DNA of 64,000 bases, from the NCBI GenBank assembly GCA_039796775.1, contig JBDKJD010000001.1, positions 88,399 to 152,398 of the forward strand. Reading direction: 5' to 3'. Under the pieces are notes generated by a model. The model did not search any database and was not told where the DNA came from. It was given only the letters and a program-made list of their open reading frames with translations. Of the stretch, positions 9,632-46,280 are shown piece after piece. Position 1 is the first letter of the stretch, and each line of letters begins with the position of its first letter. The translations under genes were made by a program, and so were the position numbers. The DNA comes from Candidatus Parcubacteria bacterium (GTDB lineage Bacteria; Patescibacteriota; Minisyncoccia; Phycocordibacterales; UBA5272).

Positions 9632-11077
9632 ATGTCTATAATTACTCTCTATACTACTAACTCAAGGAAAGAAGAGACCTTTACTCCTTTGAATAAAGAT
9701 TCTGTACATATCTACTCTTGTGGACCAACTGTGTATCATTATGCGCATATCGGTAATTTGCGTGCTTATGTATTCGCAGATGTCTTGCGAAGAATGTTTT
9801 CTAAAAGTGGCTACACCGTGAAGCATGTGATCAACATCACAGATGTTGGACATATGACAAGTGATGGGGATACAGGTGAAGACAAATTAGAAAAAGGCTC
9901 TCGAAGAGAAGGTAAGAGTGCTTTTGAGGTAGCTTTGTTCTATGAAGAAGCTTTTAAAAAAGATCTCGGACTTCTTAACATACCACTCAAAGAATATCTA
10001 TTCCCAAGAGCGACTGAATATATACAAGAACAAATCAATCTTATTGAGAAGTTAGAGTCAAAAGGCCACACGTACAGAATAGATGATGATGGTATTTATT
10101 TTGACACTTCAACATTCAAAGAATACAAAGATTTAGCACAATTAGATATAGAACATCTACGGTCTGGTGCTCGTGTAGAAGAGAACCCCCTCAAGAAAAA
10201 TAAAACCGACTTCGCATTATGGAAATTTTCTCCCAAAGGCTTTAGACGTCAAATGGAATGGGAATCCCCTTGGGGTGTTGGCTTTCCTGGTTGGCATATA
10301 GAATGTTCAGCGATGTCAAAAGCTCTTCTTGGGACCACATTTGATATTCATACAGGTGGTATAGACCATATTCCCGTGCATCATACTAACGAAATAGCTC
10401 AGAGCGTATGTGCGAATGATGCTCCTTATGTGAAGTATTGGATGCATGTTAATTTTCTCCATGACAAGACAGGTAAGATGTCAAAATCAAATGATGACTT
10501 CTTAACCCTTGATTCAATTATTCAAAAAGGATATGACCCGATGGTGTATCGTTATTTTGTATTAACCGCACATTACAGAAAAGAACTTTCTTTTAGCTAT
10601 GAAGCATTACAGGCAAGCAAGATGGCATACAACAAACTGTCTTCTTTTGTCATCAATAACAAAAAAAATGGATCGATTATCCCCTCTTCTTTGAATGCAT
10701 TCCTAGAAGCTCTACAGCATGATTTAAGAACCCCTGAAGCAATAGCTCAAATGTGGTCTCTCATGCAAAGCGACTACAAAAAAGAAGATATTAGCGCGAC
10801 ACTTAAGGAGATGGGGGACATGCTCGGTATTATATTTAAAGATAATGCTATAGATGAAAAAGCGCTCGAATCTTTTATTGCTAAATTAGTACAAGATTAC
10901 AAAAAAGCAAAAATAGCAAAAGATTATGCAACCTCAGACACAATACGAGAGCGTCTCAAAAAAGAAGGATACACTGTTCAAGATGAGAAAGACGGCGGTG
11001 TTAAATTTTTTGCAAATATGGAAGTGAACATGTCAGGGTCTTCCTCTTTAAAAACAGATATTGATACTGAACAATAA
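9632..11077 (+). CDS. cysS: cysteinyl-tRNA synthetase
   Basis: Class I HIGH-type (HIGN) and KMSKS motifs; CGPTVY; zinc-binding Cys and His residues. Confidence 0.95.
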   Translation: MSIITLYTTNSRKEETFTPLNKDSVHIYSCGPTVYHYAHIGNLRAYVFADVLRRMFSKSGYTVKHVINITDVGHMTSDGDTGEDKLEKGSRREGKSAFEVALFYEEAFKKDLGLLNIPLKEYLFPRATEYIQEQINLIEKLESKGHTYRIDDDGIYFDTSTFKEYKDLAQLDIEHLRSGARVEENPLKKNKTDFALWKFSPKGFRRQMEWESPWGVGFPGWHIECSAMSKALLGTTFDIHTGGIDHIPVHHTNEIAQSVCANDAPYVKYWMHVNFLHDKTGKMSKSNDDFLTLDSIIQKGYDPMVYRYFVLTAHYRKELSFSYEALQASKMAYNKLSSFVINNKKNGSIIPSSLNAFLEALQHDLRTPEAIAQMWSLMQSDYKKEDISATLKEMGDMLGIIFKDNAIDEKALESFIAKLVQDYKKAKIAKDYATSDTIRERLKKEGYTVQDEKDGGVKFFANMEVNMSGSSSLKTDIDTEQ

Positions 11078-11083
11078 TCGAAC

Positions 11084-11117
11084 ACTAGATGCGTCGCCGT
11101 AGGCGACGCATCTAGTG
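11084..11117 (+). terminator. hairpin after cysS
   Basis: Perfect 15-bp inverted repeat cactagatgcgtcgcc/ggcgacgcatctagtg. Weak U-tract. Confidence 0.5.
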
Positions 11118-11232
11118 CCAAGAGCTAAAAGCTCATAGCTGTCCGCTTATCCCCACTTTCCCCAGAAAAATAACAAAAGATAATTAATTATCATTTGCGT
11201 CAACTCCCCCTCATTGAGGTACACTCTATAGC

Positions 11233-12693
11233 ATGTTACCTCTTAATCAATTACAACCCTCAAGAAACAAAACGTCTCGCAAACGCTATCAAGACTATGA
11301 CAAAAAAATAGGCGAGACTGCTTTTGCTGGTACGCGTATCCCACCACAGGACTTAGATGCCGAGAAGGCGCTTCTTGGTTCTCTTCTCCTCTCCTCTGAT
11401 ACGCTTTTTGATATTTCAGATATTATTCACACTCAATCATTTTATGCAGCCAAGCATCAACTCATCTATGAATCAATTGAAGAGCTAGTTAATAATAAAG
11501 AACCTGTTGATATATTAACTGTCTCATCTTCTCTCAAGACCAAGAAACTCTTTGATCAAATTGGAGGTGCCCCATATCTCTCTGAATTACTCGGCTTAGT
11601 TGGATCAGCAGCAAATGCAAAGTATTATGCTCAAATCATTAGAAAAAAAGAGTTGCTCCGCAAGCTCATTGAAGGAAGTAACCACATTGCAGAAATATCA
11701 TACGAAGAAGAAGAGACGCTTGAAAGCATCTTAGAAGATGCCGAGAAAACAATTTATGAAATCACTACCAAAGGTGAGGCCTCAGGGCGGCTGATTGGAT
11801 TCAACGAAATGATTGACGAGACCTGGTCTCGCATTGAGAAACTCGCAGATCATACAGGCGGCATGCGTGGCACACCGAGCGGATTCAAAGAACTCGACAA
11901 TAAATTATCTGGATTCCAGCCATCTGACCTTATTATCTTAGCTGCTCGACCTTCTGTTGGTAAGACATCTCTCGCGCTAGACTTCGCACGCAACGCGGCT
12001 GTTAAGAGTAATATTCCTGTAGCAATCTTCTCACTTGAAATGAGTAAAGAACAGCTCGTAGACCGTATGCTTTCAGCGCAGTCCCAAGTCGACGGATGGA
12101 AACTCCGCACAGCCAAGCTTTCCCTAGATGAGGAATTCGAACGTCTTCAAGCTGGAATGCATGAGCTCATGAAGGCTCCTATTTATGTAGATGACACTGC
12201 GGCTAACTCTATTTTGAACATGAGAAGTACATTGCGACGACTCCAAACAGACAAGCCGATAGGTCTCGTGATAGTCGACTACTTGCAGCTTATGAGTACT
12301 GCTAAGAACTATGACAACATGGTTAATCAAGTAACCGAAATCTCTCGCTCATTAAAAGGTTTAGCGAAGGAATTCAATGTGCCTGTTATCGCACTGTCAC
12401 AGCTTTCTCGTGCGGTAGAGTCTCGTGGTGGACGCCCTCGTCTCTCTGACCTTCGTGACTCAGGATCAATCGAACAAGATGCGGACGTGGTGATGTTCAT
12501 CCATCGCGAAGACAAGTATGGTGAGAACACAGAAAAGAAAAATATTGTAGAGATACTCATAGAAAAGCATCGTAATGGACCAACAGGTGTTGTAGAACTT
12601 TACTTCGATGACAAGAAGACATCCTTCCTCTCTGTCGAAAAGTCAGAGTTCGGCGACTTCTCCATCCCTTCAGTTAAGATACCTGAGTTTTAA
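11233..12693 (+). CDS. dnaB: replicative DNA helicase DnaB
   Basis: N-terminal LDAEKALLGSLLL. Walker A ARPSVGKTSLALDFARN. RecA-like core. Confidence 0.95.
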   Translation: MLPLNQLQPSRNKTSRKRYQDYDKKIGETAFAGTRIPPQDLDAEKALLGSLLLSSDTLFDISDIIHTQSFYAAKHQLIYESIEELVNNKEPVDILTVSSSLKTKKLFDQIGGAPYLSELLGLVGSAANAKYYAQIIRKKELLRKLIEGSNHIAEISYEEEETLESILEDAEKTIYEITTKGEASGRLIGFNEMIDETWSRIEKLADHTGGMRGTPSGFKELDNKLSGFQPSDLIILAARPSVGKTSLALDFARNAAVKSNIPVAIFSLEMSKEQLVDRMLSAQSQVDGWKLRTAKLSLDEEFERLQAGMHELMKAPIYVDDTAANSILNMRSTLRRLQTDKPIGLVIVDYLQLMSTAKNYDNMVNQVTEISRSLKGLAKEFNVPVIALSQLSRAVESRGGRPRLSDLRDSGSIEQDADVVMFIHREDKYGENTEKKNIVEILIEKHRNGPTGVVELYFDDKKTSFLSVEKSEFGDFSIPSVKIPEF

Positions 12694-34903: not shown

Positions 34904-35590
34904 ATGCGAGAAGAACATAGTGAGGATATGATCAATAATTTAAATGAAGTGCATCCGTCAATATCTCAACACGAAGAAACGTACTCATATAAGAGTCGAG
35001 GCATGCGAGACAAAATAGCTAAAGGCTTCGTGGCCGCCTTAGCTGAGTCAGCAGATTTTCTCTTTAGGGAACGTTACGGACATAGAGCGATAGTACTTGA
35101 AACTGTCGCCTCAGTTCCTGGAATGGTTGGAGGATTCTTCCAACACATGAAATCGTTACGAAGAATACAAGATGACAGAGGCTGGATACAGACACTGTTA
35201 GATGAGGCGGAGAATGAGAGAATGCACTTGCTTATTTATAGCGAAATAGCCAAACCTACTGCTTTTGAAAGATTCTTGATTATTGTTGTACAGTTCTTCT
35301 TCTCTCTTCTTTATTTTATTTTGTACGCATGCTCTCCAAAGACCGCTCATAGAGTTGTTGGATATTTTGAAGAACAAGCTATACACAGCTATGAAACATA
35401 TCTTCGATTGGTGCACGAAGGTGTTCACGAGAACATAGAAGCGACTACTCTTGCTAAGTCATATTGGAATCTACGAGAGGACGCTCGTCTTATCGATGTC
35501 ATAGAAGCCACAATTCGAGATGAGATGCTTCATAGAGATGTGAATCACAGATTCGCGAATGACAGAGAAGGTACTAAACTTTGGTGGTAA
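34904..35590 (+). CDS. aox: alternative oxidase (AOX, di-iron ubiquinol oxidase family)
   Basis: All four AOX iron-binding motifs are present: LETVASVPGMVGG, ENERMHL, EEQAIHSY, RDEMLHRDVNH. Near-collinear with trypanosomal/plant AOX cores. Confidence 0.85.
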   Translation: MREEHSEDMINNLNEVHPSISQHEETYSYKSRGMRDKIAKGFVAALAESADFLFRERYGHRAIVLETVASVPGMVGGFFQHMKSLRRIQDDRGWIQTLLDEAENERMHLLIYSEIAKPTAFERFLIIVVQFFFSLLYFILYACSPKTAHRVVGYFEEQAIHSYETYLRLVHEGVHENIEATTLAKSYWNLREDARLIDVIEATIRDEMLHRDVNHRFANDREGTKLWW

Positions 35591-40115: not shown

Positions 40116-40315
40116 TAAGACTGGGTAGCGGTACGAATAAGCTTATTGCTTCCCATGCCAAAAATTGATATAATTGTTTCTATTGTTTTATAGAGACCAT
40201 TAGCTCATATAATACGAGGCGAAAGCTGAGATTAAATAATGCCGACGGTTTCAAAACCAGCGCGATCTAAGGGTCGATGCAAGGATATAAGGTTTATAGG
40301 TTAAAAATACAATAA

Positions 40316-40388
40316 GGGCCCTTAGCTCATATGGTAGAGCGCCGGTTTTGCACTCCGGAGGTGAGCGGTTCGATTCCGCTAGGGTCCA
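40316..40388 (+). tRNA. tRNA-Ala (anticodon UGC)
   Basis: Acceptor GGGCCCT/AGGGTCC with the G3:U70 Ala identity pair. Anticodon loop TTTGCAC. T-arm AGCGGTTCGATTCCGCT. Resembles E. coli tRNA-Ala. One 31:39 U-U mismatch. Confidence 0.88.
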
Positions 40389-40399
40389 CTCGGGTTAAC

Positions 40400-40430
40400 A
40401 AAAGCATAATACATATTGTATTATGCTTTT
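40400..40430 (+). terminator. intrinsic terminator after tRNA-Ala
   Basis: aaaagcataataca-tat-tgtattatgctttt hairpin. Confidence 0.6.
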
Positions 40431-40450
40431 GTGTTAAACAACCTGAAGAG

Positions 40451-40639
40451 ATGCAAATGGCCAGTGAAGGCAAAATTGAAGACACTCGTGGCGAGACTTA
40501 CACAGACAAGACACGTGAATTCGTGATCAAGGCCTTGCTTGAAAAAAGTGACACCCAGAGCCTCGCACTTTTTGTAGGTCTCACTGAAATCGCAGATGCC
40601 ATTAGTGAAGGACTCGACAATCTCGCAGAAAACATCTGA
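40451..40639 (+). CDS. hypothetical small acidic protein (62 aa)
   Basis: Internal Met of ORF 40331-40639 (the rest overlaps the tRNA). GC higher than the local background. Confidence 0.3.
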   Translation: MQMASEGKIEDTRGETYTDKTREFVIKALLEKSDTQSLALFVGLTEIADAISEGLDNLAENI

Positions 40640-40695
40640 AAAACAGGAACTCATCCCAACCCGCCATCGTAACCAAAGAAAATCTGTGGTTCGTT

Positions 40696-40802
40696 AGGCG
40701 GGTTTTCTTATTCTATTTTTTCATACTCTCCTTTCAATACCCAAGAAAGATACTTCAATTCTTTTACAATTTGGTTCAGAAAAATGATGTCGAAGTCCAC
40801 AG
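40696..40802 (+). repeat. 107-bp direct repeat, copy A
   Basis: aggcgggttttcttattctattttttcatactctcctttcaa...ggttcagaaaaatgatgtcgaagtccacag. Six mismatches in 107 bp against copy B. Confidence 0.9.
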
Positions 40803-40805
40803 CTA

Positions 40806-40834
40806 TTGACAAACATAGTATATATTGTTATACT
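40806..40834 (+). promoter_or_regulatory. near-consensus sigma70 promoter with extended -10
   Basis: TTGACA (40806-40811), 17-nt spacer, TGtTATACT (40826-40834). Confidence 0.6.
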
Positions 40835-40907
40835 GTATTTGACGTTGCTATATTCATTCACTTGACATGCAGGTTTGCAACGTCGCCTGCGGGCCCAAGG
40901 AGTTCTT

Positions 40908-41315
40908 GTGGAACACATTCAAATCGGTACGAAAGATGCAGGGGCTGGCACAGCAGCAACGATCACCAAGCCGCTGGACAGCGAGCCCCGTGCGAAAACC
41001 TTCCTGGCCGAGTACCTGCGTTCGCGAAGTATACCGGTGAATATCTACAGCATGACCTTCTCGACAGAAAAACGTGAGTTCAAGCTCAACACCACATCGA
41101 AAGATGTCTTTCTTCAGCTCGGTGCCATGGATGAAGAAGGCCAGCGTGCGTTTGGGCTCATGGTCTACCATCGTGCAACCATGGATGGGCGCGCGCTCGT
41201 GACATTCCCGCATACTGACGGATGTAAGGGATATTTATGCATCGTAACTCGGGGAATGGGTAACGACCACGAGGAGCGTATCCACATTGACATCTCCATC
41301 GCATCTGACAAATAG
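40908..41315 (+). CDS. hypothetical protein encoded in a GC-rich foreign-looking cassette
   Basis: Markedly GC-richer than flanking DNA. AAGGAG (40896-40901) 6 nt upstream of GTG 40908. ORF-track alternative start TTG 40875. No family recognised. Confidence 0.5.
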   Translation: MEHIQIGTKDAGAGTAATITKPLDSEPRAKTFLAEYLRSRSIPVNIYSMTFSTEKREFKLNTTSKDVFLQLGAMDEEGQRAFGLMVYHRATMDGRALVTFPHTDGCKGYLCIVTRGMGNDHEERIHIDISIASDK

Positions 41316-41353
41316 CCCCCGCTTCATGCGCAACGGAAAATCCATCTGCGTGC

Positions 41354-41460
41354 AGGCGGGTTTTCTTATTCTATTTTTTCATACTCTCCTTTCAAAATCC
41401 AAGAAAGATAGTTCAATTCTTTAGCAACTTGGTTCAGAAAAATGATGTCGAAGTCCACAG
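41354..41460 (+). repeat. 107-bp direct repeat, copy B
   Basis: About 94% identical to copy A. Its last 8 nt, gtccacag, form the outer end of the following palindrome. Confidence 0.9.
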
Positions 41461-41510
41461 AAAAAGTAAAAGCAGTATCAAAAGATACTGCTTTTACTTT
41501 TTCTGTGGAC
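41453..41510. terminator. 58-bp perfect palindrome (27-bp arms) / strong terminator
   Basis: gtccacagaaaaagtaaaagcagtatc-aaaa-gatactgcttttactttttctgtggac. Confidence 0.7.
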
Positions 41511-41671
41511 CCGAAGGCTCCCGGACTTTTTACATTGTACTCAATGTGTTAAAGTCCGCAACCCCTTTAGGGAGTTCACTTTCATAGTTAGAGCAAAATT
41601 TAGAGAGTTTGCATAAAGACAAATAAAACATGTAGAATAACTATAGTTGTTATATTTTTACAGAAGGAGAA

Positions 41672-42119
41672 TTGCTTATGTTTAAGGATATAGGGCAAGG
41701 TATTCAAGACTGGGTGCTCTTTGTGAAAGACGGAGAGCGGAGGGCTCACATTAGTCTCTCCGAAGACACAGAGAGCTACACTGTTTTTGCACTCATCAGA
41801 AATGCAAAAAAACGTTTCAATCTTACAGGATCCAGTTGCGTTGCTTTATTTAGAAAGCCTACAAAGAAATGGCGCTGCAAAAATAGAAGGGCTTTCAAAA
41901 ACTGCTGAAGTTTCTCTTCTTATTTCAGGACTTTTCCCTGAGATGACTAAGAGGGCTCGCGTGAGCGCAGATTACTATCTAGATATCTGCCGTACATCTT
42001 TCTTTGATCTTTCTTCGTATTGCGAATATTCTCGAAGGTATGTAGAAGCAAGACAGTATCACACTTTAGCTCTCGAAGCAGAAAGGATAACAAAAGTATT
42101 ACGGTGCGCAAGACCGTAA
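41672..42119 (+). pseudogene. hypothetical gene apparently split by a frameshift (41672-41908 and 41787-42119)
   Basis: Two same-strand ORFs overlap by about 120 nt in different frames. Together they would encode roughly 165 aa. Confidence 0.3.
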
Positions 42120-42131
42120 TCACCCACGCTT

Positions 42132-42163
42132 AAAAACTTCACACTCCTTAGTGTGAAGTTTTT
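42132..42163 (+). terminator. intrinsic terminator
   Basis: aaaaacttcacact-cctt-agtgtgaagttttt perfect hairpin. Confidence 0.7.
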
Positions 42164-42243
42164 GTTTACTTTTCCTGACTTAAGAAAAAACGCTACAATA
42201 AAAACACCTACACAAAAAATCTTTTTTTGATACTATAGAAACA

Positions 42244-42903
42244 ATGAAAATAATCTCATTTAATATAGGTAACTTCATATGGGCACAACATCTACCAGGA
42301 AGAAAGCATTATGCGTTCCACAAAGATGATATCGATGCGGTATGCGCTCTCATTAAACAAGAAGACGCGCAGGTTGTTTTTTTGCAAGAGGTCGAAACTG
42401 CTGATATAGAGTTTATCAAAAGTCATTTTCCAGAATTCCCACACTTTCTCACCATACACATAAAAGAAGAAAAGGCGGCATCTCTTTTTATGAGTATGTA
42501 CCCGATCACAGATATCCCCCACTCAGAAAGCCATGATTATATAATAAATGGGATAACATTCTTCCCTATTCACCTCTACGCATTCTCACCGAAAGTTCGC
42601 AGAGAACAGGTACTGCGGCTTCTCCCTGACCTGCCGGGAGAGAAAGGCGTCATCTTGGGGGATACGAACTTCTGGATAGTCTATGGCAACTTTTTATCAC
42701 GAAGAGATAAAAGATCGTATAACAAAATAATAAAAGACCATGTTGATGTACTGAAGAAGCTGGGACCAACCTGCCGCATATTCTTATCGCTTGATAAGAT
42801 ATTTATTACCAAAGACCTTATATCTAAGGATGCGAAAATAACTAAACATACAATTGGACACATCGATCACTATATGATAAGTACTATAGTAGAGACTACA
42901 TAA
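42244..42903 (+). CDS. endonuclease/exonuclease/phosphatase (EEP) family protein
   Basis: MKIISFNIGN...VVFLQEVE N-terminal EEP motif. Conserved D/N/H positions toward the C-terminus. Confidence 0.7.
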   Translation: MKIISFNIGNFIWAQHLPGRKHYAFHKDDIDAVCALIKQEDAQVVFLQEVETADIEFIKSHFPEFPHFLTIHIKEEKAASLFMSMYPITDIPHSESHDYIINGITFFPIHLYAFSPKVRREQVLRLLPDLPGEKGVILGDTNFWIVYGNFLSRRDKRSYNKIIKDHVDVLKKLGPTCRIFLSLDKIFITKDLISKDAKITKHTIGHIDHYMISTIVETT

Positions 42904-42915
42904 TGCTAGTTTCAA

Positions 42916-43167
42916 ATGCCAACCACGGATTCATTATTTTATATAACAATGGATATATTACAATCACTACTCACTCTTATACACACTCTTCTCTCCCTGG
43001 TGTACGGAGCAATCCCCTCACCCGAAGTCGCAGGAAGTGTCTTAGAAAACATAGTAGCCACTACCACCAAAAAACTTCCAGAAGAGCTACAGACTGTTGT
43101 TGAGGTTGCTGAAACTGCGCAAGGAATTATTCAGAAGGTTCAACAATACGAAGCGTTGCTTCCATAA
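42916..43167 (+). CDS. hypothetical protein
   Basis: ORF only. Confidence 0.3.
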   Translation: MPTTDSLFYITMDILQSLLTLIHTLLSLVYGAIPSPEVAGSVLENIVATTTKKLPEELQTVVEVAETAQGIIQKVQQYEALLP

Positions 43168-43175
43168 ATGTATTC

Positions 43176-43754
43176 TTGCTATTCTATAGACATCTCATGA
43201 CATCAATCACCTTCTTTGCTATTTACAAACAACTCTTTACCATTCTTCATGTACTCTGTGTCATTATTGGTATGGGAGCAGCGCTTGTTACTGATATTTT
43301 ATTCTCGTTTTTTGCTTCTAACAAAACTCTGTCTTCATTTGAAATAAAAATCATCAGATTACTCTCTAAGGTGGTCACTCTTGCGCTTGTTGGTATTGTA
43401 CTTACTGGTATCACTATATTTCTCTCTGATCCATTACGATATATGGCGTCTGCAAAGTTTTTGACCAAGATGAGCATTGTACTTATACTCTGTATCAACG
43501 GTTACTTGCTCCACCGATTCATCTTCTCAAGACTCTCTGAAAAAGATTTTTTAATAAAAAGAAAAACTAGTAGCGTAAGGAAGATGTCTTTTGTTCTTGG
43601 TGCTGTATCACTTATCTCATGGGTAAGTGCTATGTCTTTAGGGGTGCTCGATAAAATCAATCTCTCTTACACAACAGCCTTTTCTCTCTACCTTGTAGTC
43701 CTTGTCTTTGGGGCCATGATTTCCCAAGTTATCGCCAAAAAACTGTATCCATAA
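43176..43754 (+). CDS. hypothetical integral membrane protein
   Basis: Five to six TM helices. Confidence 0.45.
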   Translation: MLFYRHLMTSITFFAIYKQLFTILHVLCVIIGMGAALVTDILFSFFASNKTLSSFEIKIIRLLSKVVTLALVGIVLTGITIFLSDPLRYMASAKFLTKMSIVLILCINGYLLHRFIFSRLSEKDFLIKRKTSSVRKMSFVLGAVSLISWVSAMSLGVLDKINLSYTTAFSLYLVVLVFGAMISQVIAKKLYP

Positions 43755-43820
43755 AATTATCACCTTTACCCCCATTTTTTACTTTCAAAATAAGAACTTA
43801 GTAACTATACTGAGAACATA

Positions 43821-45068
43821 ATGAGTTCTCCTAAACGCGTATTAATGATTGGTTGGGAATATCCTCCTCATCATAGCGGGGGTCTTGGTGTTGCATGCCA
43901 GGGTATGGCGCACGCTTTGGCTGATAGACAACATTATGTATGTTTTGCTCTTCCAAAAAAAATGCCTATTTCAGATACAAAAGTCACTCTCCTCTATCCA
44001 AATAAAAAAAGTGGGAAAGTGGGTGGAAAAGAAATTTCTATTCTTCGAGAATTATATAATCCATATATCGAACCCTCTCGTTATCACTCTTTTAGAGAAC
44101 AATCTAAAGATATACTCGATCCGATGTTTGTACCGGGCACATTAAAAGAATGTGTTGAACTTTATGGTGTTGAACTATCACGAGAACTACTTGAGAATCC
44201 GATAGACGTCGATATTATACATGCTCATGATTGGTTATGTTTCCCAGCAGCAGTTGCAGTCAAGAAGCTTCTACAAAAACCTTTTATCGCACACATACAC
44301 GCGACTGAATTCGATAGATCAGGAGGACAAGGTGCTAACCCTTATGTCTATCAACAAGAGAAGTTAGGGATGGAAGAATCTGCTCACATTATCACAGTGA
44401 GTGAGTTAGTAAAAAGAACGGTCATCAACAAATATGGCATCCCTCCTGAGAAGATAACAGTCATTCATAATGGCAATACAGATCTCGCGAGCAAGAATGA
44501 ATCTATCTTCGACAATCTCATCACCTTCAAAGAAAAAGGGTATTCTATTGTGCTCTATGCTGGACGCATCACATTACAAAAAGGTGTAGAGTACTTCGTA
44601 CATGCTGCCAAAAAAGCATTGGAAGTTAATCCAAAAATTATCTTCATCATAGCAGGTACAGGAGACATGGAGCGTTATATTATAGAATTAGTTAACAACC
44701 TTGGCATCTCTAGTAATTTTATGTTTACTGGATATTATACTCTCGATGATATGGCGTCTCTCCTTAAGCACGCATCCCTCTTTGTAATGCCTTCAGTATC
44801 AGAACCTTTTGGTATAGTCCCGCTCGAAGCGATAACCAAAGATGTCCCTGTTATCATCTCCAAGCAGTCCGGCGTGTCTGAGATATTACATCATGCGCTC
44901 AAGGTAGACTTTTGGGATACAGACAAAATAGCTAATCAAATACTCGCCGTCATTCATCATCCCCCTCTTCATAAAGTATTAAGAGAGGAAGGCAGAAGAC
45001 AAGTACAAGACATCACGTGGGATAAAGCGGCTAGCAAAATACATCATGTGTACAATTCTGTACTATAA
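43821..45068 (+). CDS. GT4-type glycosyltransferase (glycogen-synthase-like)
   Basis: N-terminal MIGWEYPPHHSGGLGVACQG. C-terminal EX7E region SVSEPFGIVPLEAI. Confidence 0.8.
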   Translation: MSSPKRVLMIGWEYPPHHSGGLGVACQGMAHALADRQHYVCFALPKKMPISDTKVTLLYPNKKSGKVGGKEISILRELYNPYIEPSRYHSFREQSKDILDPMFVPGTLKECVELYGVELSRELLENPIDVDIIHAHDWLCFPAAVAVKKLLQKPFIAHIHATEFDRSGGQGANPYVYQQEKLGMEESAHIITVSELVKRTVINKYGIPPEKITVIHNGNTDLASKNESIFDNLITFKEKGYSIVLYAGRITLQKGVEYFVHAAKKALEVNPKIIFIIAGTGDMERYIIELVNNLGISSNFMFTGYYTLDDMASLLKHASLFVMPSVSEPFGIVPLEAITKDVPVIISKQSGVSEILHHALKVDFWDTDKIANQILAVIHHPPLHKVLREEGRRQVQDITWDKAASKIHHVYNSVL

Positions 45069-45083
45069 CTACTATAATCATAT

Positions 45084-46280
45084 ATGCCATCTATAGCTCT
45101 TTATTTAAAAACACATCAACCTTATCGAATAAAAGATTATCGGGTATTCGACATAGGCAAAGATCATCATTATTTCAACGCGCCTCACGGGCACAGAACC
45201 AACAATGAAGATGTGCTCAAAAAAATCTGCGAAAAATCTTATCTACCAACTAACGCAGTTCTCTTAGAATTACTCGAGCGTTACCCTGATTTCAAATTAA
45301 ACATATCCCTTTCTGGCACACTCTTGGAACAATTAGAAGAACACTCCCCTGAGACTTTAAAAACATTTCAAGATCTCATCAAAACAGGGCGGGTAGAAAT
45401 ATTAGGTGAAACATATTATCACTCTCTTTCTTTTTATTATTCTTTGACTGAATTCGAGGCGCAAGTTGAGATGCACAAAAAAATAATTAAGAGGCTTTTT
45501 AATGTCACGCCAAAAGTATTCTCAAATACAGAGCTCGCATATAGAGACGACTTAGCCGCATGGGCAGAAAAAGCAAAATATAAAGGAATCATAGCCGAAG
45601 GATGGGATCCGGTACTTGGATGGAGATCTCCTAATTTTGTTTATGCTCCACCTAATACCAAGAAAATAAAATTACTCCTTAAGAACTATCGACTGTCGGA
45701 CGATATAGCATTTCGATTTAGCAATAAAGGGTGGAGTGGGTGGCCACTCACAACAGAAAAGTTCGCTTCTTGGGTCAATCAAACACATGGCAATGCAGAG
45801 ACAATTAATCTCTTCATGGACTATGAAACATTTGGAGAACATCAATGGGCAGATACTGGTATTTTTGATTTCTTAAAACATCTTCCACGTGAATTATATA
45901 AACACAAAGACAACAGCTTCCTGACAGTGAGTGAGACATGCGAACGATATGAAGCAAGAGACGTGGTCTCTATGCCCAACATTGTCACCTGGGCAGATAC
46001 AGAGCGAGACTTGTCAGCGTGGACCGGGAATACAATGCAACAATCTTCTTTGCATGAGCTTTATAGAATAGAAGAAAAGATACGCGACACCAAAGACAAG
46101 AAACTCATCGATGATTGGCGCAAGTTACAAACATCTGATCATGTGTATTACATGTGTACCAAATGGTTCTCAGACGGTGATGTGCACAAATATTTCTCTC
46201 CATATGAATCCCCATATGAAGCATATATAGCATTCACAAATGCTCTCACAGACCTTAAACTTAGAGCAGGTATACTCTAA
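45084..46280 (+). CDS. glycoside hydrolase family 57-like (alpha-glucan active)
   Basis: N-terminal LKTHQPYR (GH57 HQP block). Size and gene context fit. Family call is motif-level. Confidence 0.55.
   Translation: MPSIALYLKTHQPYRIKDYRVFDIGKDHHYFNAPHGHRTNNEDVLKKICEKSYLPTNAVLLELLERYPDFKLNISLSGTLLEQLEEHSPETLKTFQDLIKTGRVEILGETYYHSLSFYYSLTEFEAQVEMHKKIIKRLFNVTPKVFSNTELAYRDDLAAWAEKAKYKGIIAEGWDPVLGWRSPNFVYAPPNTKKIKLLLKNYRLSDDIAFRFSNKGWSGWPLTTEKFASWVNQTHGNAETINLFMDYETFGEHQWADTGIFDFLKHLPRELYKHKDNSFLTVSETCERYEARDVVSMPNIVTWADTERDLSAWTGNTMQQSSLHELYRIEEKIRDTKDKKLIDDWRKLQTSDHVYYMCTKWFSDGDVHKYFSPYESPYEAYIAFTNALTDLKLRAGIL

Follow-up and report, generated by a model that had tools for sequence, protein, structure and literature searches.

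Two 107-nt repeats beside a tRNA-Ala gene as probable far-end scars of a serine recombinase with its attachment site in its own reading frame

Two repeats downstream of a tRNA-Ala gene

The DNA analysed here is a 64,000-nucleotide stretch (the window) of contig JBDKJD010000001.1 from a Candidatus Parcubacteria bacterium (assembly GCA_039796775.1). Next to a gene for transfer RNA (tRNA)-Ala(UGC), it carries two direct repeats of 107 nt on the plus strand, copy A at 40696-40802 and copy B at 41354-41460. They were recovered with a repeat finder (spacing 658 nt) and with blastn (E = 9e-44), and they form one family of two members. An earlier note, based on the letters of the sequence alone, had described two imperfect repeats about 94% identical, with six substitutions. 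Direct comparison confirmed this, together with both pairs of coordinates, as 101 of the 107 positions are identical. All six substitutions lie between unit positions 43 and 75, so that the first 42 nt and the last 32 nt are the same in both copies.

As the note had also stated, the copies share their start, AGGCGGGTTTTCTTATTC, which is the G+C-rich 3′ half of a stem followed by a T-tract, and their end, GATGTCGAAGTCCACAG. The GTCCAC that stands before the final AG of both repeats is identical to the final six bases of the tRNA-Ala gene (40384-40389). Upstream of the repeats, a weaker but structurally conserved similarity extends across an entire two-level terminator. The interval between the copies holds a near-consensus promoter, a GC-rich open reading frame (ORF) and the 5′ half of the terminator of that ORF, which bears out the description of the repeats as bracketing a promoter, a foreign ORF and its end.

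No third copy was found within the 64-kb window by blastn or by an nhmmer profile search. A scan for exact 23-mers gave a single match each in GTDB species genomes and JGI metagenomes, both adjoining cassette-like units, and none among viral contigs, where the promoter module had no match either. We therefore rejected a dispersed intergenic repeat. The many scattered copies unlinked to foreign DNA that, according to the note, would have pointed to a generic repeat did not turn up. The note was right that this is not an array of clustered regularly interspaced short palindromic repeats, in which at least three short repeats (about 25-50 nt) alternate with unique spacers of similar length; here only two copies occur, each 107 nt long and with a spacing of 658 nt. 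A structured RNA or small RNA family was rejected as well, as the Rfam gathering score was passed only by the two tRNAs, and sub-threshold matches were hairpin look-alikes of microRNA precursors located on a palindrome downstream of copy B.

The sequence is reproduced in an independent assembly. Contig L001 (Logan SRR35185531) is identical to window positions 41431-45838, which places the same organism in a second data set. It breaks inside repeat B, exactly where the last 30 nt common to both repeats begin, as a graph with k = 31 is expected to do when it meets a repeat.

After the tRNA-Ala gene, the order is promoter module, acidic ORF, terminator and repeat A; promoter module, GC-rich ORF, terminator and repeat B; and then the palindrome. 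This gives two units with one ORF each: unit 1 at 40390-40802 (413 bp) and unit 2 at 40803-41460 (658 bp). The tRNA-Ala gene itself (40316-40389, plus strand; ARAGORN, Rfam 61.5 bits) precedes copy A by about 300 bp. Its GTCCAC end is, as far as the sequence tells, the bacterial-side attachment arm.

Unit 1 begins with a module at 40395-40436 (plus strand), 5 nt past the tRNA end. A promoter scan found TTAACA-18-TATTAT here, overlapping a 16-bp perfect hairpin (fold z = -7.2). The module of unit 2 (40806-40840, plus strand) has the same layout, with TTGACA-17-TATACT (40806-40834) overlapping an inverted repeat, ATAGTATA/TATACTGT. Homologs of the unit 2 module are kept before unrelated small cargo ORFs at two related loci, three times in L002 and also in L008.

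Each unit ends in a terminator whose 3′ half is the start of the adjoining repeat. In unit 1 this is a two-level structure (40658-40722, plus strand; fold z = -5.2, aligned with homologous terminators) with an outer stem, AACCCGCC/GGCGGGTT, an inner GAAAAUC-loop hairpin and a T-tract. In unit 2, terminator and fold scans together with the alignment identified a hairpin and T-tract at 41318-41380 (plus strand). Copy A closes with the 8-nt core GTCCACAG (40795-40802, plus strand), which is joined via CTA to the unit 2 promoter. The join reads GTCCACAG-CTA-TTGACA in the window and GTCCACAG-ATA-TTGACA in L008, where it precedes an unrelated 65-aa ORF.

A probable recombinase tail, and relatives in which the gene is split

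Read on the minus strand, each repeat appears to be the 3′-terminal piece of a gene for a large serine recombinase (serine integrase), and neither a target-site duplication nor a regulatory element. A repeat consists of 30 codons, a stop, a 12-nt spacer and half of the terminator held in common with the convergent gene. The peptide pattern shared by both copies is VDFDIIFLNQ..KEL.YLSW.LKGEYEKIE, followed by the stop.

Tail A (40708-40800, minus strand) comprises the last 30 codons and TAA, VDFDIIFLNQIVKELKYLSWVLKGEYEKIE, and was recognised by the match of protein P0011 to window positions 40827-40717 (E = 8e-12). It has neither a start codon context nor an upstream body. Tail B (41366-41458, minus strand), VDFDIIFLNQVAKELNYLSWILKGEYEKIE, was identified by comparison of the tail peptides and matches P0012 (E = 5e-10). 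Its frame stays open upstream as far as 41548, over a stretch that is not clearly recombinase-like. The six nucleotide differences between the copies fall within four codons and all cause conservative replacements. The minus-strand peptide is also kept in L008, L002 (two copies) and L003 despite diverged DNA.

A profile of the tail matched P0008 to P0011 (E between 6.5e-12 and 5e-8), and a longer ORF ends with this peptide in P0008 and P0011. Once these four proteins were included, an exhaustive search matched 91 proteins, and in those of 504-550 aa the similarity lies at or near the C-terminus. Five of the latter were compared with Pfam, which assigned Resolvase (PF00239) to all five, Recombinase (PF07508) to four and Zn_ribbon_recom to one. 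These domains identify the family as large serine recombinases. The intact protein P0031 is also related to the fragments, its residues 437-516 matching the fragment in L009 (E = 1.6e-16). The family is present in Saccharibacteria and their relatives.

The window itself carries no recombinase body, as judged by tblastn with 10 family members and by Pfam on 48 window ORFs; the Pfam searches found no tyrosine recombinase in the window either. The C-terminal homology is thus present at the locus and the catalytic and Recombinase domains are absent from it, which makes the repeats fragments, not genes. The reading of the repeats as an integration footprint can be kept in part. An origin in site-specific integration, with foreign cassette-like DNA in between, fits the ends shared with tRNA-Ala and a cargo family with varied neighbours. 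The copies would not be a target or att duplication caused by insertion of the GC-rich gene, each being the 30-codon 3′ end of a recombinase gene. On this reading each copy is the arm of the attachment site contributed by the recombinase, and both units have one of their own. For annotation this is a warning that conserved "intergenic repeats" may be gene fragments on the opposite strand.

Relatives reveal where such a tail comes from. P0012 and P0048 are 55% identical (E = 1e-27), and their similarity stops just past a common Val-Asp pair. Beyond this point P0048, P0068, P0035, P0027, P0038 and P0050 all end in VDPxGxEP...RSTx, as encoded by the complement of a tRNA gene. For P0048 and P0068, the tRNA-encoded C-termini match the complement of the window tRNA-Ala (40392-40333).

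Three further loci contain the junction itself. In L012, a decayed recombinase ORF continues into the tRNA-Ala complement at ...TTGTGGAC|CCGAGAGG. L013 has a full-length recombinase whose fusion to tRNA-Ala is at GTGGAC. In L014, a full-length recombinase (10001-11515) is fused to a tRNA-Val complement at TGTGGGCGA, position 11473. A second TGTGGGCGA stands 8.8 kb away, at 2681, and is followed by the missing tail, VGDEFIFWNQVAKEISYLNSIS and a stop, with a convergent gene adjoining. A core at both ends of an element with the recombinase inside was thus found in L014, and L012 and L013 display one end each. The window has the tRNA 3′-end junction and the common core, as its tRNA-Ala ends in GTCCAC and its repeats in GTCCACAG. 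From the fusions in L012-L014 and the far-end tail in L014 we conclude that the attachment site lies inside the reading frame of the recombinase and that integration splits the gene.

We therefore read the repeats as far-end scars of an element whose attachment site lies in its own recombinase ORF, and we give this a probability of roughly 0.8. The site would coincide with GTGGAC, which encodes the Val-Asp pair 30 codons from the stop and whose complement, GTCCAC, closes the tRNA-Ala(UGC) gene. A crossover at this short core would cut the recombinase gene in two. The body would land beside the tRNA and read into its complement, acquiring the new C-terminus VDPxGxEP..., and the 30-codon tail would be moved to the far end of the inserted DNA along with a convergent cargo gene and its terminator. 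To judge by the sequences compared, integration would exchange the last 30 residues of the enzyme for a tRNA-encoded peptide.

Conservation around the core adds to this picture. Among window copies A and B, L008, L002b and L009, the core-adjacent 32 nt are 91-100% identical, with zero synonymous change; the genes that flank L009 are about 74% identical to the window. The following 43 nt are 51-77% identical between different loci and 88% identical between copies A and B. This constraint at the DNA level suggests that the roughly 30 nt next to the core are a putative recombinase-binding half-site, and the crossover probably occurs within GTCCAC(AG).

The relatives offer several further observations. 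The integrated recombinases of this clade (P0068, P0035, P0048, P0027, P0038, P0050 and P0049, and those of L013 and L014) keep a full catalytic domain. L014 2681-11482 is a complete 8.8-kb element at tRNA-Val, with TGTGGGCGA at each boundary and a SIR2_2-domain gene beside the recombinase tail; the SIR2_2 family is often linked to phage defence. Beyond the element, at a distance of 150 bp, TGTGGGCGA occurs a third time, together with a partial tRNA. In L011 (1228-7551), intact P0031 is encoded near genes for a relaxase (Replic_Relax), a TrwB-type coupling protein and a DnaG-like primase, with no tRNA nearby. By its gene content, this region looks like a conjugative or mobilisable element. In L010 (344-583), a recombinase tail fragment abuts the truncated 3′ end of a glmS-like gene on the opposite strand, and the next ORF resembles a small terminase subunit by eye. 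The recombinase family may thus occur in phage-like elements too, or with other targets.

History of the locus and its surroundings

On this reading the tRNA-Ala gene would be an integration hotspot of this lineage, with two small foreign units stacked head to tail. The simplest history would be two successive site-specific insertions at tRNA-Ala, with the recombinase bodies lost. Alternatively, mini-units devoid of an integrase could have been inserted by an enzyme acting in trans. We infer one of these two routes, with the recombinase body lost later or missing from the outset.

Several points weigh against the scar interpretation or fit it poorly. We found no empty site, no circular junction, no strain without unit 2 and no variant of the locus lacking the insert, and mobility is thus a historical inference. 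No full-length recombinase with the exact VDFDIIFLNQ tail was recovered, and the closest intact one (P0031, L011) is more distant. To the right of the core, different sites have little sequence in common, which sits uneasily with an enzyme that should recognise two half-sites, and the crossover is placed to the core but not to one dinucleotide. Partial tRNA 3′ ends of at least 14 nt precede the L002 and L008 cassettes, and one lies near the L014 element; a crossover at a short core predicts none. Perfect palindromes bounded by GTCCACAG and CTGTGGAC are left without explanation. Finally, copies A and B are 94% identical to each other and about 70-80% identical to any other copy, which would also fit local duplication or gene conversion.

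This last point leads to the strongest alternative, in which a single tail was deposited and the terminator-tail block was then copied locally, by unequal crossing-over, replication slippage or gene conversion, with the GC-rich gene placed in between by an unrelated event. The copies are each other's nearest relatives, with 42 identical nt at the start and 32 at the end, and the window has none of the partial tRNA copies that would mark separate events. However, the identity between A and B ends abruptly within the terminator stem, and the 5′ halves and loops of the two terminators differ, each resembling a different relative. In addition, copy A meets the conserved promoter module exactly at the core, as in L008; this shared join argues for a site-specific rather than a random event. 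Arrays of promoter, ORF, terminator and tail with different cargo recur in L002. On balance we regard local copying as unlikely.

In another alternative the repeats would be antisense units, each with a minus-strand promoter and a mini-ORF of 3 codons, and would control the two genes upstream. The strings on which the note had based this idea are indeed present in both copies: TTGAAA-16-TAGAAT, which agrees with the consensus at 10 of 12 positions, and AGGAGAG-ATG-AAA-AAA-TAG. As a functional unit they do not hold up. ATG-AAA-AAA-TAG appears when the recombinase codons GAG TAT GAA AAA ATA GAA TAA are read out of frame. The copies in L002 and L008 keep the recombinase peptide but have no mini-ORF, and their hexamers differ in sequence or spacing. 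Promoter-like matches are also common in such an AT-rich stretch, with 8 in 2.2 kb against 4.3 expected by chance. This makes an antisense role very improbable.

Least credible of all is a duplicated, useful micro-protein gene starting at the GTG in the core: the 30-codon frame is open and conserved, with GTG first and a hairpin at its end, but neither copy has a ribosome-binding site before the GTG, the peptide is the end of longer recombinase fragments in L009 and L010 and the C-terminus of intact proteins, and the zero synonymous change across the first 10 codons speaks for constraint on DNA rather than on protein.

Returning to the scar interpretation, a broader proposal can be attached to it. 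The units may form a family of non-autonomous single-gene cassettes, with a promoter-palindrome end and a tail/half-site end, that are captured, stacked and exchanged at tRNA-Ala and at tRNA-like decoys by a Saccharibacterial serine integrase acting in trans. This would amount to an integron-like platform whose integrase is switched between two C-terminal forms by integration. We put this forward tentatively and would sooner expect it to fail than to hold.

The palindrome downstream of copy B (41453-41510; inverted-repeat scan, fold z = -12.4) is a perfect inverted repeat of 27 bp around a loop of 4 nt. On the outside it is bounded by two 8-mers, the core GTCCACAG, which is also the end of copy B, and the complementary CTGTGGAC. 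Analogous perfect palindromes occur in L002 (805-859 and 1729-1783), with a different interior and the same outer 8-mers, GTCCACAG/CTGTGGAC. We considered the palindrome as the centre of an attachment site and rejected this, as the junctions in L012, L013 and copy A sit at the outer 8-mer, not at the loop. At the right flank of the palindrome, an inverted fragment resembling the 3′ end of tRNA-Ala (41503-41526, minus strand; CTGTGGACCCGAAGGCTCCCGGAC on the plus strand) was recognised by eye from the recombinase-tRNA junction of L012, TTGTGGACCCGAGAGGACTCGAAC.

Other tRNA-like pieces were also seen. Structured blocks in L002 (59-165, 1055-1270 and 1982-2070) and L008 (3961-4083) have the form GGGAGAATCG ... 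CGATTCTCC, with inner-hairpin stems that vary between copies. These blocks lie upstream of cassette promoters, and their last 14 nt repeat the 3′ end of tRNA-Ala. As pseudo-tRNAs these "S elements" were rejected, since Rfam made no tRNA call on them and only the 14-nt 3′ ends match a tRNA. Just upstream of tRNA-Ala (window 40190-40310, L008 3700-3830), a stretch opens like the 5′ end of a tRNA (ATTAGCTCATAT) and has no ARAGORN or Rfam call. Either a degraded copy of a tRNA or a different small RNA may lie here.

The cargo of unit 1 is a 62-aa acidic protein (40451-40639, plus strand) that family searches assigned to no known family; the database holds one identical cluster only. Unit 2 encodes a protein of 135 aa (P0001; 40908-41315, plus strand, GTG start). 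In this ORF, 200-nt windows reach about 53% GC, compared with 39% for the whole window. P0001 has five homologs (P0002-P0006) at 61-70% identity, with 63-70% between the unit 2 protein and those of L002 and L004, and across genomes the family has three different sets of neighbours. The two cargo ORFs had no Pfam matches, and 10 cassette ORFs including both had no PHROG matches. An AlphaFold model of the cargo protein reached a mean pLDDT (predicted local distance difference test) of 60.5, and Foldseek found nothing in the PDB at E <= 0.001. The JGI label "sarcosine oxidase delta subunit" for this family was found to be without support.

The 5′ leader of the GC-rich ORF (40841-40907, plus strand; recognised by its conservation) carries an AAGGAG ribosome-binding site at 40897-40902. 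The stretch 40836-40907 is conserved above the protein level, with 89% identity to L004 (blastn), and 70 of 77 alignment columns are conserved in L002 and 63 of 77 in L004. The pairing GACGTTGC...GCAACGTC becomes GACGTCGC...GCGACGTC in L004, which is one compensatory change. The leader may be a regulatory RNA.

Downstream of the array, two plus-strand ORFs (41672-41908 and 41787-42119) overlap in different frames and could be one frameshifted gene. A promoter-like stretch upstream of them resembles a stretch of L002 at about 4470. The window is otherwise ordinary chromosome, with genes for seryl- and cysteinyl-tRNA synthetases, DnaB, a clamp loader, an ABC transporter and glycogen-type enzymes. 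It also encodes an alternative oxidase (34904-35590; PF01786, E = 6e-67), which is unexpected in a lineage usually called fermentative (the genome was taken as Saccharibacterial in our analysis).

Comparison with known systems

The tycheposon islands of Prochlorococcus insert next to tRNA genes and display stacking, fragmented integrases, partial tRNAs and cargo, and 910 of 937 reported Prochlorococcus elements (mostly tycheposons) use tyrosine recombinases, with a partial tRNA as the repeated motif (bioRxiv 10.1101/2020.12.28.424599). The window resembles them in stacking beside a tRNA. It differs in that a large serine recombinase takes the place of the tyrosine enzyme, what is repeated is the 3′ end of the recombinase gene itself, and the units, of 413 and 658 bp, are very small.

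Cis-mobilizable elements of the Streptococcus families of integrative and conjugative elements are att-flanked units without a recombinase that are moved by one supplied in trans. The units in the window also lack a recombinase and are flanked by predicted recombination sites.

An attP within the integrase gene is a feature of archaeal integrases of the SSV1 type and of IntP of the Myxococcus phage Mx8, which are tyrosine recombinases. Integration of Mx8 replaces the 3′ end of intP. The C-terminal swap in L012-L014 is alike; the differences are the serine integrase, the short core and a C-terminus derived from the complement of a tRNA.

Among serine integrases, those of phiC31, Bxb1, A118 and SPbeta share with this family the arrangement of Resolvase, Recombinase and zinc ribbon as well as short sites with few common bases. 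In canonical large serine integrases, attP normally lies beside the gene and not within it. In the clade to which the window tails belong, unlike the phiC31 or Bxb1 type, the attachment site is inside the gene and the target is the 3′ end of a tRNA. The 3′ ends of tRNAs are not known as targets of serine integrases (PMC7192596).

Integron cassettes are similar in forming tandem single-gene units with a conserved 3′ element at one fixed chromosomal capture site. The units in the window differ in having no IntI, a 3′ element that is not an imperfect palindrome with R and L boxes, and a strong promoter and a terminator of their own. An integron attC site was rejected, as folds of the terminator with the first 30 nt of each repeat gave the terminator hairpin only. 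The inverted-repeat scan found no arms inside the 107-nt unit except its last 8 nt, which are the outer end of the 41453-41510 palindrome.

We found no description of such elements in Saccharibacteria or Patescibacteria in the literature. Saccharibacteria are tiny epibiotic bacteria in which gene exchange is poorly understood. Short and well-defined attachment sites could aid the development of genetic tools for candidate-phyla bacteria. If the C-terminal swap affects directionality, it would act as a built-in switch, which is relevant to the use of serine integrases in genome engineering.

The repeats themselves are explained and fairly ordinary, and the interesting part is the architecture of the recombinase. 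What separates it from known systems is the combination of enzyme class and target: a serine integrase that targets tRNA genes and is split by its own site.

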